The translations under genes and the position numbers were made by a program. A stretch of DNA of 24,276 nt from an uncultured Microcoleaceae cyanobacterium. Its GTDB lineage: Bacteria; Cyanobacteriota; Cyanobacteriia; Cyanobacteriales; Microcoleaceae. The notes beneath the pieces are model-generated. The model had not been told where the DNA came from, ran no database searches, and worked only from the letters and a program-made list of their open reading frames with translations. The stretch lies in the NCBI GenBank assembly GCA_938083405.1, contig CALKCV010000124.1, positions 1 through 24,276 on the forward strand, in the 5' to 3' direction. This document shows, one piece after another, positions 9,679-24,276 of this stretch (the first letter of the stretch is position 1; the number at the start of each line of letters is the position of its first letter).

Positions 9679-9829
9679 AACTTTTTTTCATGACTAGAGT
9701 TTGACATCTATCGAATAGAGACAGTCCTAGCATTAGATCGAGTCGCAAGGGGCTCGCCCAGGCAGAAAATAAAGAGAGGAAAAAGGGGAATGCAAGACGG
9801 AACAAGGCTCCCAGAACAACACTCAATCA

Positions 9830-9864
9830 TTAATTATTAATTATTAATTATTAATTATTAATTG
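9830..9864. repeat. Heptamer tandem array (TTAATTA) x5
   Basis: ttaatta x4 plus ttaattg. Confidence 0.95.
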
Positions 9865-9925
9865 ATATTAGAGATTTATCGACATCTACCCAGACGGGGA
9901 TACGCAACAAAGCTTCGATCGCTTG

Positions 9926-10027
9926 TAAGTAAGTAGGCAAAAATAAAAACATAAAATTCTTTTCTATTTGCCCGTAGAACAGGCCGGAATGCCTGTTCGG
10001 TACGTAATTAATTTTCGCAGGTACTTA
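9926..10027. mobile_element. MITE-like element (family B) with TAAGTA...AAAAT(T/A)AA ends enclosing a GTAGAACAGGC REP hairpin
   Basis: Left TAAGTAAGTAGGCAAAAATAAAAAC; right (minus strand) TAAGTACCTGCGAAAATTAATTAC; internal GTAG-AACAGGC-cggaat-GCCTGTTC at 9974-9998; 5 nt from the clpB stop. Confidence 0.6.
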
Positions 10028-13720: not shown

Positions 13721-13818
13721 GTAGTAATCGCTTTAGCGATTTAGAGCCGATTTGTTTTTTATTGTTAAGAGCGATCGCTACGAACTTTTCCTATCGCGAA
13801 GAGCGATCGCTACGAACT
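13721..13818. repeat. REP family A cluster (one forward unit and inverted HIP1-bearing variants)
   Basis: GTAGTAATCGCTTTAGCGATTTA at 13721; 20-bp direct repeat AAGAGCGATCGCTACGAACT at 13767 and 13799. Confidence 0.75.
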
Positions 13819-13874: not shown

Positions 13875-13948
13875 CGGGACTGACGGGATTCGAACCCGCA
13901 ACTTCCGCCGTGACAGGGCGGTGCTCTAACCAGTTGAACTACAGTCCC
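13875..13948 (-). tRNA. trnD: tRNA-Asp(GTC)
   Basis: GGGACTG/CAGTCCC acceptor, CCGCC/GGCGG anticodon stem with CT-GTC-AC loop, T loop TTCGAAT; CCA not encoded. Confidence 0.97.
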
Positions 13949-20947: not shown

Positions 20948-21040
20948 AAGTTTGTCCCTTTCGGACTAAAATTGAAGTAAACCGATGCAACCCTAATTTT
21001 GGGGTTGCATATCTAGTTGTTTAATGAGTTAAAAAAACCA

Positions 21041-21817
21041 ATGGGAAGCGAAAGAATCGTTTTATTATCAAAAAGAGAAATAGAAAAGATGCGGCGGGCG
21101 GGGCGCGCGGCAGCAGCATTACTACACTATCTCGAACCTCATGTCAAGCCGGGAGTCACCACTGCGGAACTCGACGAGATAGCCGAAAGTTGGACGAAAG
21201 AACGGGGATACCGCAGCGCCCCTCTGGGGTATCACGGCTTTCCTAAGTCTATTTGCACCAGCGTTAATAACGTCATCTGTCACGGCATCCCCAATAAGAA
21301 ACAGGTATTAAAGGACGGAGATATTATCAATATCGACGTAACGCCAGTGGTGGATGGCTATCACGGCGATACTTCCAAGACTTTTTTCGTGGGGGAACCA
21401 TCTGCCGAGGCGAGGAAGTTAGTAGAGGTTACGGAGAAATGTCTTTATCAAGCTATTGAAGAAGTTAAACCGGGGAACCGGATCGGGGATCTGGGTGCTG
21501 CCATTCAGGAATGTGCCGAGCCCCAGGGTTTTTCCGTAGTGCGAGATTTTGTCGGTCACGGCGTGAGCAATGTTTTCCATACCGCCCCCCAGGTGCCCCA
21601 CTTCGGCACTCGGGGAAAAGGCAAGCGCTTGCGACCTGGAATGGTGTTTACGATCGAACCGATGATTAACGAGGGAAGTTGGGAAGCTAAGGTGCTTGAG
21701 GATGAGTGGACGGCGATTACGGTGGATGGGGGCTTATCGGCACAGTTCGAGCATACTGTTGCGGTCACTCCAGATGGGGTTGAGATTTTGACCTTATACG
21801 AAGGAGACGACGTTTAA
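21041..21817 (+). CDS. map: Methionine aminopeptidase type I (ATG 21041 preferred over 21017)
   Basis: CTSVNNVICHGIP, NIDVT, HGDTS, GHG, FTIEPM, AQFEHT metal-ligand motifs. Confidence 0.97.
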   Translation: MGSERIVLLSKREIEKMRRAGRAAAALLHYLEPHVKPGVTTAELDEIAESWTKERGYRSAPLGYHGFPKSICTSVNNVICHGIPNKKQVLKDGDIINIDVTPVVDGYHGDTSKTFFVGEPSAEARKLVEVTEKCLYQAIEEVKPGNRIGDLGAAIQECAEPQGFSVVRDFVGHGVSNVFHTAPQVPHFGTRGKGKRLRPGMVFTIEPMINEGSWEAKVLEDEWTAITVDGGLSAQFEHTVAVTPDGVEILTLYEGDDV

Positions 21818-21829
21818 AGCGATGGGTTC

Positions 21830-21967
21830 GTAGTAATCGCGAAGAGCGATTCATCCATAAGCACCCGTGCCAAATTAATTAGACATATTGAACAGGCGAG
21901 ACGCCTGTTCTACGAACAAATCTTTGTCTAAATATTTTTGCTTATAAATCGCTAAAGCGATTACTAC
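21830..21967. mobile_element. REP family A inverted doublet (REPIN-like) with a nested family B element at 21858-21944
   Basis: Outer perfect 13-bp IR TCGTAGTAATCGC (21828-21840)/GCGATTACTACGA (21957-21969); inner TAAGCA...TTAGACA / TGTCTAA...TGCTTA ends enclosing GAACAGGC-gagac-GCCTGTTCTAC. Confidence 0.75.
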
Positions 21968-21981
21968 GATCGAGCTAACAA

Positions 21982-24090
21982 CTACAGCTCGATACCAATT
22001 AATTGAAAACTTCGTTTAATCTCTTTTGCTAAATCCGCTTTTTGCTGTAATTCGTACAATTCTACTGCTTTGAGATAAGCATTTCGCATTTCCAGAAAGT
22101 TAGCATATCCCTCCCCCGCTTCGATAAGATGAAACAAAACCCAGCCTAAATTATGATACGCTTCGGCATAACTTGGGTTTAATTTCACTGCCGCTTCCAG
22201 ATAAGAACGCGCTTGCGATCGCTCCCCGCGATCGCCTAACAAACTACCCAAACGAAACAGACAAAAATCGTCCCCGAAACTGGAGTTATCCAAAGAAGTT
22301 CGATTCAACTTTTGTCGATAGATATCCATGGCGGCATCCTGCCTTCCCACCCGTTCGCAAGCAACGCCCAAATTCACAAAGGCCCACCAGGGAACTTCCT
22401 GTTGGCCGGTTGCCGTTTGTAAAAGAGCGATCGCTTCTTCCCATCTACCCCGACTCGCCAGCTTCCAACCCTTGTATCCCCAGGCAAAAGCGCTATCCGG
22501 TATTTGCTCTAGAAACTCTTCTATACACCTATCCGCATCGGGGGCGGTTTCACCGGCTAGGGCCTGGGCGATCGCTACGGTCAAACAAGGATAAAGCCAT
22601 CGCTGCAATTCCAGATTATAATTGTTATTAAACTGCTTTAATTTAGTAATAGCCGGGCGAGTGGCGCGGATAGACTCTACCCACCGATTTTGCTTTACTA
22701 AAATCCAACCTTTTAAGCCCAATGCAAAACTAGAATTGCTATCTAATTCTAAAGCGCGATCGCAAGTTTTTTCTGCTTTTTCCCAATAGCCTAATTTAGC
22801 CAAAGCCCAAGCAAAATTAGCCTGTATCCAGGACTCATCCGGCGCTAAAAACGCTCCCCGCTGTAACAGAGAAAGTGCCTCTTCCCAGTTAGCTTGGCGA
22901 GCGCTTATTAACCCTAAAACGCCATAACTTCTACCGTCATTCGGCTGTAATTCAATAGCTTTATTAGCTGCCGATGCCGCTTGGCGATCGCTACCCTCAG
23001 ACATAAGCAACATTGCCAGCTCCACCGCAGCCAAACCATTATTTGCTTCTCGCGCCAAACATTCCTCATAAGCAGAAATAGCCTCTACAATTTTTCCCGC
23101 TTTAACTAACTCTCGCCCCCGCCTCAAAGAAGGAGAAATAAACTCACCTTTTAAAGCATCAATTAACTCATCCGCGCTCTGAAAGCGTTCCTGGGCTTTC
23201 AACTTCATACCAGTTAAAACGATCTGTTCTATGTGGCGAGAAATTGACGGCATTATTTGTCGCGGTGGAACCAAAGTATCGCTCGTCATTCTAGCAGGAG
23301 AAGCCACAGGAATTACCCCGCTTAAAGCGTGATACATCGAGGCGCAAAAAGCATAAAAATCCGTACTGGGATGGCGCTTGCCGAAATGAGCGTATTGTTC
23401 TAAAGGGGCGTATCCGGGAGTTAACATGGCAGTCATTTTTTTCGTAATACCTGCCATAAATTCTCTGGCGGCCCCGAAGTCGATGAGAATTGCTTTGTCT
23501 TCGGAATTAATAATAATATTATCTGGTTTAATGTCTCGGTGTAATAAATTATTACTATGAACTACTTTTAGGGCATCTGCCACTTGCAGAAAATAATTTT
23601 TAACGCGATTTTCTGGCAATTGCCCCTCGGCTTTTAACATTCTAGAAAGAGGCTTTCCTTCGACAAAATCCATGACGAGATAGGCCGTGTTATTTTCTTC
23701 AAACCAGTCATAAACTCGGACAATATGAGGATGAGCGCATCGTTTTAAAGATTCTGCTTCTGTTTTAAATTTTTGGATTTGTTCCTCTCTAGCTTGTGCC
23801 GGCAGAGAATTGGCATAAATAATATTGGGGCCCTCTCTGGTAAACTTGTCCGGGCATAGTTCTTTAATGGCAACTTCCGCAGAAATGTCGGTATCGATCG
23901 CTTTGTAGGTGATGCCAAAACCGCCTTCGCCTAAAGTTTTTTCGACGATATATCTGCTCTGCTGAAGTTTAGTTCCAGGAGGGAGTTGATATCCCGGAGA
24001 AGATAAAATAGTTAGGGGAAAACTGCAGGCAGCACAAGTAATGGAAGTATCTAAGTTTTGAGCGCTGCATTTAGGACATTTGATAGGCAT
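21982..24090 (-). CDS. Ser/Thr protein kinase with N-terminal double zinc ribbon and C-terminal TPR repeats
   Basis: CPKC...CAAC; GEGGFG, VAIKE, HRDIKPDN, DFG, TPGYAPLEQ; multiple TPR units (e.g. YAEAYHNLG); no TM segment seen. Confidence 0.93.
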   Translation of the reverse strand: MPIKCPKCSAQNLDTSITCAACSFPLTILSSPGYQLPPGTKLQQSRYIVEKTLGEGGFGITYKAIDTDISAEVAIKELCPDKFTREGPNIIYANSLPAQAREEQIQKFKTEAESLKRCAHPHIVRVYDWFEENNTAYLVMDFVEGKPLSRMLKAEGQLPENRVKNYFLQVADALKVVHSNNLLHRDIKPDNIIINSEDKAILIDFGAAREFMAGITKKMTAMLTPGYAPLEQYAHFGKRHPSTDFYAFCASMYHALSGVIPVASPARMTSDTLVPPRQIMPSISRHIEQIVLTGMKLKAQERFQSADELIDALKGEFISPSLRRGRELVKAGKIVEAISAYEECLAREANNGLAAVELAMLLMSEGSDRQAASAANKAIELQPNDGRSYGVLGLISARQANWEEALSLLQRGAFLAPDESWIQANFAWALAKLGYWEKAEKTCDRALELDSNSSFALGLKGWILVKQNRWVESIRATRPAITKLKQFNNNYNLELQRWLYPCLTVAIAQALAGETAPDADRCIEEFLEQIPDSAFAWGYKGWKLASRGRWEEAIALLQTATGQQEVPWWAFVNLGVACERVGRQDAAMDIYRQKLNRTSLDNSSFGDDFCLFRLGSLLGDRGERSQARSYLEAAVKLNPSYAEAYHNLGWVLFHLIEAGEGYANFLEMRNAYLKAVELYELQQKADLAKEIKRSFQLIGIEL

Positions 24091-24133
24091 TTTTTTCGGG
24101 GAATAAATTGTTTTGGTGGTGCGGGAGCGGTTG

Positions 24134-24191
24134 TTTGTAGTAATCGCTAAAGCGATTCATACCTATAAATCGCTTTAGCGATTACTACAAA
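24134..24191. repeat. REP family A inverted doublet, empty form
   Basis: TTT-GTAGTAATCGCTAAAGCGATTCAT-acct-ATAAATCGCTTTAGCGATTACTAC-AAA. Confidence 0.85.
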
Positions 24192-24276
24192 TTTGAAATA
24201 ATAAACGAATATTGCCGATGGTAATTTCGTCTCCTGAATTTAAAGTTTCTGGGGCGGTAATTTTCTGATATCCAGT
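24175..24276 (-). CDS. 3' end of a probable FHA-domain protein (5' part outside the window)
   Basis: Open frame from the window edge: TGYQKITAPETLNSGDEITIGNIRLLFQICSNR*; L..GD.I.IG...L.F matches the FHA C-terminal strands. Only 33 aa are visible. Confidence 0.65.
   Translation of the reverse strand, partial: TGYQKITAPETLNSGDEITIGNIRLLFQICSNR

Follow-up and report, generated by a model that had tools for sequence, protein, structure and literature searches.

A putative IS630-type MITE nested in a REP doublet between map and a protein kinase gene of a Microcoleaceae cyanobacterium

How does one palindromic repeat come to lie within another? This question is raised by the 164-nt gap between two convergent genes, map and a Ser/Thr protein kinase gene, near the end of the window, by which we mean the whole 24,276-nt stretch of DNA analysed here. 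The gap houses a filled family A doublet (21830-21967), in which an 85-nt family B element separates two GTAG-type REP arms in inverted orientation. An earlier note on this DNA had read the arrangement as a hierarchy in which one repeat family targets the axis of another's hairpin. We favor, with considerable confidence, a reading in which B, probably an IS630-type MITE mobilised in trans, inserted at a TA of a pre-existing doublet after the window's lineage had split from that of a close congener, the nesting being incidental.

For comparison we used the window's own genome (G000; 3.04 Mb in 576 contigs, 55% complete), which has a GC content of 44.5% and is rich in HIP1 (1.17 GCGATCGC per kb), together with three congeners, G001, G002 and G003. 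G002 is 99% complete and shares about 94% nucleotide identity with the window in the flanking genes. In a scan of named genomes, the best match to the MAP protein came from Okeania sp., with 81% amino-acid identity.

Anatomy of the filled doublet and its repeat families

The features on which the argument rests are as follows, with a strand given where one is assigned.

21017-21817, + strand: methionine aminopeptidase gene map (Pfam Peptidase_M24, E 3.4e-58; from the ORF list)
21826-21851 (arm 21830-21851): family A left arm, with GTTC tail, GTAG box, stem AATCGC, loop GAAGA and stem GCGATT (read directly)
21852-21857: first six spacer bases, CATCCA, the same as the spacer start of the empty G002 orthologue
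21858-21859: left copy of the target TA (filled versus empty site, compared with G002)
21860-21942, + strand: body of the family B MITE, short subfamily (aligned to 31 full copies; 86% identical to the consensus)
21890-21913, + strand: REP2 hairpin inside B, with stem GAACAGGC, loop GAGAC and stem GCCTGTTC, followed by TAC
21943-21944: right copy of the target TA (filled versus empty site, compared with G002)
21945-21946: final two spacer bases, TA in the window and TC in G002 (same comparison)
21947-21971 (arm 21947-21967): family A right arm, with stem AATCGC, loop TAAA, stem plus CTAC box GCGATTACTAC and tail GATC (read directly)
21982-24090, - strand: Ser/Thr protein kinase gene with TPR repeats (Pfam Pkinase, E 8.3e-41, plus TPR families)
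24133-24192 (52-nt core 24137-24188): empty doublet of family A, on the upstream side of the kinase gene, with loops TAAA and TTTA and spacer CATACCTATA
9926-10027, - strand: free-standing family B MITE between the two copies of its duplicated TA (82% identity with the B consensus; the orthologous G002 site has no B)

The filled doublet, the empty doublet at 24137-24188 and the free-standing B at 9926-10027 had all been described in the earlier note, and all three are present. With 302 A arms, 47 perfect doublets and 38 two-ended B copies in G000, these repeats are not chance matches. The map stop codon lies 12 nt upstream of the filled doublet and the kinase stop codon 10 nt past its other side, and a scan of 21600-22200 gave no intrinsic terminators. 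The left arm agrees with the family A consensus, which was derived from 43 doublets, and the right arm is identical in the window and the G002 orthologue. Since B itself carries the REP2 hairpin, the structure has three layers: a REP hairpin in a DDE-type MITE in a REP doublet. The composite folds into one nested hairpin (dG -33.5 kcal/mol, z -7.8), and the empty doublet at 24137-24188 folds as a single perfect 24-bp hairpin (dG -25.8 kcal/mol, z -12.4).

The arms of family A in G000 begin with GTAG and take the form GTAGTAATCGC, a 4-5-nt loop and GCGATT. Inverted around a 10-nt TA-rich spacer (consensus yATmkAkATr) and extended by GTTC and GAAC tails, they make up doublets with a dominant size class of 52-54 nt, and the loops of the paired arms are complementary in 55 of 68 doublets. 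Family A is very lineage-specific: perfect doublets number 370 in G002, 47 (52-54 nt) in G000, and 3 and 2 in the other two congeners, and elsewhere in the order arms occur in one of 120 other sampled genomes. The arms are extragenic palindromes of 20-40 nt, tagged with GTAG at one end and present in high copy, as in GTAG-type REPs; in the doublets two such REPs stand in inverted orientation, at a short constant distance, and fold into one hairpin, as in REPINs. Judged by its sequence, the family A doublet is thus built like a REPIN, a dimer of GTAG-tagged REPs.

No cognate RAYT gene with REPs at its sides, of the kind the earlier note had suggested looking for, turned up among the PF01797 matches of G000 (55% complete) to G003, most of which are short or interrupted. 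Two inspected Y1_Tnp loci (G000:C566 and G002:C254) are of IS200/IS605 type with a TnpB-like neighbour, and neither A nor REP2 motifs were seen beside Y1 transposase genes at the four loci scanned. We therefore rejected the Y1_Tnp genes as the RAYT of family A, those examined being IS200/IS605-type genes or fragments. The insertion target and duplication of family A were unreadable at C45:1556 and C45:3077, two G000 doublets missing from G002, because the surrounding intergenic DNA is otherwise rearranged. Separately, the window carries one A arm and two HIP1-containing arm variants at 13721-13818, near tRNA-Asp (13875-13948, - strand). In G002, A half-units are repeated here in tandem over a long stretch, with a period of 29 nt, and this array terminates both contigs (G002:C240:1-300 and the end of G002:C55).

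Family B is a small, non-coding, multi-copy element of roughly 90-105 nt, whose full copies typically measure about 90-113 nt. The 55%-complete G000 holds, besides the 38 copies with both ends, 91 exact ends in all, and the congeners hold 274 (G002), 356 (G001) and 30 (G003). B ends read TAAGTA....GCAAAA and are unlike each other further in, one continuing ATTAATT and the other ATATTT. The nested copy is 92% identical to G000:C17:904-990. It is missing 8 nt from its right inverted end and, because of this loss, is probably immobile now.

REP2 hairpins number 224 in G000, 36 of them within B and 188 free, and copies outside B are often tandem. A GTAG/CTAC tag accompanies 200 of the 224, in keeping with GTAG-type REPs, of which REP2 is a second family, carried within B. 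A 66-nt B-like element in G001:C126 (L016, about 1555-1620) has ends of a single type and lacks an internal REP hairpin, which suggests that the REP hairpin of B was acquired. A further level of nesting was seen at G000:C470:5907-6084, where a 178-nt B copy encloses another palindromic element with ends CTCTCCAG...TGGAGAG, flanked by a TTAGAC duplication.

A third MITE family, present in the window at 9738-9880, ends in TTGCGACTTGATAT and carries arrays of an AATTAAY heptamer. By eye, about 80 of its 99 motif matches in G000 seem genuine; in most, TAG or AAG comes next. Four copies or more lie in or at A arms (G000:C217:3897, C107:8700, C253:2214 and C92:1293); three of them directly precede TAGCGATT and so sit at the TA of a TTTA loop. 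One window copy is absent from G002.

Empty and filled sites and the direction of change

The earlier note had taken B for a separate non-autonomous mobile element that entered a pre-existing A doublet, and the orthologous map-kinase junction in a relative bears this out. In the congener G002, an intact, empty 52-nt doublet with spacer CATCCATATC stands directly after the map stop (G002:C55:3887-3938), and in place of that spacer the window reads CATCCA-TA-[B]-TA-TA. With TA as the duplication, the pre-insertion spacer becomes CATCCATATA, of the canonical 10 nt. The ATAA duplication proposed earlier was rejected; it leaves an 8-nt spacer, whereas TA restores the canonical length and fits G002. 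The free-standing copy behaves in the same way, with CTTG-TA-TGGG in G002:C240 versus CTTG-TA-[B]-TA-TGTC in the window, so that TA instead of ATAA is found at two orthologous empty sites in G002. Consistent with this, a second filled doublet at G002:C229 gives a reconstructed spacer of TATCAA-TA-TG, and four copies (G000:C19, G002:C18, G002:C205 and G001:C480) sit at the TA of a CTAC box, GCGATTAC-TA-C. Both the G002:C229 copy and those in CTAC boxes rebuild the canonical A sequence when TA is taken as the duplication.

The filled form also occurs in contigs assembled independently, from two studies. Comparing 21300-22500 with the Logan contigs of four runs, we saw no locus-anchored empty allele in these contigs, which by their nature cannot show absence. 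Several 'joints' that skip 84-95 nt were rejected as empty alleles; their sides span only 20-26 nt and represent A doublets elsewhere. Besides the empty doublet, G002 has about 1.7 kb separating the doublet from the kinase gene (G002:C55:2150-3885) that is absent from the window (21972-21981). This segment holds two tandem paralogous small gene pairs and further A doublets, and the short motif AGCTAA is common to both of its boundaries.

We propose the following course of events. The 164-nt gap that separates map from the kinase gene would already have held a 52-nt family A REP doublet. After the split from G002, B would have inserted at the TA in spacer positions 7-8, duplicating this TA, by the action of an IS630-family DDE transposase that, supplied in trans, would cut B and paste it into TA sites. 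With the REP2 hairpin that B brought along, the locus would have become three nested palindromes folding as one long hairpin. The nesting itself would be incidental, the spacer being one of many TA-rich noncoding targets for an element without preference for A.

The same comparison could be read in reverse, with B ancestral in the doublet and lost from G002 by precise excision. No outgroup carries a doublet at the map-kinase junction, the two more distant congeners having none after map, and the nested copy, fairly diverged at 86% identity to the consensus and damaged at one end, is not very young. However, when IS630/Tc1-mariner elements excise, a footprint usually stays behind or the donor site is broken, and the G002 spacer is a perfect canonical 10 nt with no footprint. 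Moreover, G002 likewise has a clean TA where the window carries its second B, so that two precise excisions would be needed. We consider excision very unlikely. Since G002 bears no footprint and two separate B copies differ likewise, we infer that B was inserted in the window's lineage rather than excised in that of G002. Elsewhere, B copies at separate loci are identical or one base apart, and lineage-specific B insertions are seen in both G000 and G002; as far as these sequences indicate, B has been active in both lineages since their split.

Something besides the insertion of B did happen here, since the left-arm loop, at 21841-21845, is GAAGA in the window and TTTA in the orthologous G002 arm. 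The altered loop would suit an arrival of B through recombination or gene conversion, with another filled doublet as donor, instead of by transposition. Such a view could also draw on G000:C147, which joins the same GAAGA-loop arm to a B fragment of the same CATATTG subfamily (84% over 77 nt), and on the whole-unit replacement seen at other orthologous A doublets. Yet the six spacer bases to the left of B and the right arm both match G002, which would confine any converted tract within the element; C147 has no right half of B; and the TA duplication is what transposition predicts. Conversion as the source of B therefore seems to us extremely unlikely, and we retain insertion by transposition.

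The changed loop has parallels at other sites. Among four orthologous pairs of A doublets from G000 and G002, the one after map included, the loop type differs in three. At C287:8110 (versus G002:C19) both loops differ, GCTCT/AGAGC versus TTTA/TAAA; at C234:2296 (versus G002:C221) both loops again differ, and the two 10-nt spacers are exact reverse complements of each other. At C234:5972 (versus G002:C221, about 11650) the loops agree, the spacer differs at 3 of 10 positions, and an arm that is GTAGTAATCGC in one genome is GTAGCGATCGC in the other, a TA versus CG difference that creates HIP1. Where both loops changed, in two pairs, they changed together and are complementary, or near-complementary (GCTTT/AAAGC versus TTTA/TGAA). 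The perfect doublets listed for G002 have almost only TTTA-type loops, and the strain of run X4 has a right arm with loop GGAGC next to the same kinase-side flank.

Family A copies thus appear to be renewed or converted in place, and the loop and spacer changes suggest either replacement of whole units or concerted conversion in situ. Site-specific re-insertion or hairpin-templated conversion by some enzyme could account for this turnover. It is a speculative idea that family A is REPIN-like but RAYT-less and that its copies are replaced or homogenised where they stand, and we think it unlikely to hold as stated. If it is true, the doublet split by B, whose loops are now non-complementary, would be a copy no longer renewable as a unit, and the more unusual element may then be the host doublet rather than the insertion.

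The IS630-family partner and the distribution of B

The earlier note had placed the transposase of B outside the window, and candidate partners were indeed found in two congeners, at L122:853-2000 (G001:C372) and L121:857-1999 (G003:C299). These elements are 1143-1148 bp long. At either end the identity is 87%: positions 1-23 of B align with 1-23 of the IS, and positions 82-104 of B with 1126-1148. The ends thus correspond side for side over 23-24 nt each, and some B copies match at 17/17. In between, the interior of B is unrelated to the partner, and the parent IS has no REP2 hairpin. The G001 copy encodes an intact 329-aa transposase at L122:994-1983, and the match of the G003 copy shows one TAA stop. 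The 329-aa protein, with HTH and DDE_3 domains, scores 204 bits against the IS630-family model NF033545 (cut-off 100), and its closest plasmid-borne relatives are IS630-family genes of Nostoc, 52% identical to it. By its DDE transposase, and by the TA insertion and TA duplication seen for B, the partner falls in the IS630 family. As TA duplication is the hallmark of the IS630/Tc1-mariner group, the TA duplicated by B agrees with such a partner.

B is small, non-coding and multi-copy, shares its inverted ends with an IS, and shows a duplication at empty/filled site pairs; on these sequence features it classifies as a MITE of the IS630-family (DDE) type. From the matching ends we infer that an IS630-family transposase would mobilise B in trans. 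Neither G000 (55% complete) nor G002 (99% complete) yielded the partner. Multi-copy IS are often missing from short-read assemblies, so this is not evidence of absence. The only DDE_3 genes seen in these two genomes, G000:C255 and G002:C90, were rejected as the partner of B; they belong to a distant IS630-like element with different ends. What had been taken for a single REP/MITE system therefore comes apart into B, which groups with DDE-type IS630-family MITEs, and the GTAG-type REPs, namely family A and the internal hairpin of B. Family A and REP2 would use another enzyme (RAYT/Y1) than the DDE transposase of B.

Does B home on family A, its transposase recognising the A doublet and preferring the axis? 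In line with the earlier note, B does lie between A arms elsewhere, in at least three loci in all: the window, G002:C229 and G000:C377, the last a non-canonical A doublet, to which a rearranged fragment at G000:C147 may be added. In both clean cases B sits at the TA in spacer positions 7-8, but each of the two spacers offers two TA sites, so that the chance of a shared position is about one in four. Furthermore, 7 of 204 B ends lie at most 12 nt from an A arm. Against all genomic TA sites (0.87%, 1.8 expected), this amounts to a roughly four-fold enrichment of B ends near A. MITEs, however, survive mainly in noncoding DNA. Of the noncoding TA sites, 2.8-3.4% adjoin an A arm, giving 5.7-6.9 expected ends (P 0.35-0.54), and the excess vanishes.

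Doublet centres tell little in G000, where the power is low: 68 doublets offer 165 TA sites among 41,691-53,256 noncoding TA sites, and about 0.35 insertions are expected from some 100 B copies, versus one canonical, one non-canonical and one rearranged case. In G002, by comparison, a single one of the 370 perfect doublets is filled by B despite 274 B ends. Near A, G002 has that one copy in a doublet centre, two copies within CTAC boxes and two next to lone arms, and the number of B copies within doublets in G002 is no more than chance, possibly fewer. About 97% of the B ends lie nowhere near A, and the flanks of B outside the TA show no obvious consensus by eye. REP-specific insertion of the IS1397 kind, with most copies within REPs, is not the pattern seen for B. 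Homing of B on family A is thus not supported, the counts fit the noncoding-TA null and the nesting, real and recent as it is, looks like ordinary chance; we regard a targeted hierarchy of the kind the earlier note had proposed as very improbable.

At G000:C147:4060-4230, direct repeats of about 45 nt, consisting of flank plus A left arm, enclose 37 nt of B. We rejected this locus as a third clean nesting; a B fragment between such repeats looks like a rearrangement.

Comparison with known systems

The locus offers a clean, dated example of how layered palindromic repeats accumulate in cyanobacterial intergenic DNA. It associates the MITE with a likely transposase family (IS630) and with a target (TA), and removes the claim of homing by one repeat family on another. 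In annotation, such composites are better split into separate families, which would use different enzymes. What most merits further work is how family A doublets turn over at orthologous sites, along with the RAYT that was not found. The small dispersed repeats of Nostoc punctiforme, likewise very small and mobile and belonging to a filamentous cyanobacterium, are reportedly often embedded in one another.

Cyanobacterial MITEs that share their ends with IS and show empty and filled sites between relatives are known; one example is Nezha, with its ISNpu3-like elements (Zhou et al. 2008, summarised in PMC3184786). Like these elements, B is small and non-coding, has inverted ends in common with an IS and is flanked by a short direct duplication; it occupies AT-rich intergenic targets, may fold into a stable hairpin, and is present at some sites that are empty in close relatives. 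Unlike them, B shares only about 24 nt per end with its IS, and its interior holds a GTAG REP hairpin. We liken the two by description and do not claim that they belong to the same family.

Family A resembles REPINs and GTAG-tagged REP dimers (Bertels and Rainey 2011, PMC3116915; Di Nocera et al. 2013, PMC3733652) in its inverted GTAG REPs at a fixed short distance, its single hairpin and its hundreds of extragenic, lineage-specific copies. It is unlike REPINs in that no RAYT was found among the Y1 matches examined in G000-G003. REP dimers nested within other palindromes have been described in Anabaena (PMC3733652).

Insertion sequences that land in REPs include IS1397, ISKpn1, ISPpu9/10, ISPa11 and ISRm19/22 (Tobes and Pareja 2006, PMC1525189). 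As with IS1397-type elements, B sits inside a REP structure and the REP doublet served as its landing site. In contrast to these, which are REP-specific and have most of their copies within REPs, B is not REP-specific and is a MITE rather than a full IS. Insertions of IS and MITEs into REPs being already documented, this locus is a well-documented further example, in which the TA duplication and the putative IS630-family origin of B are the new details.
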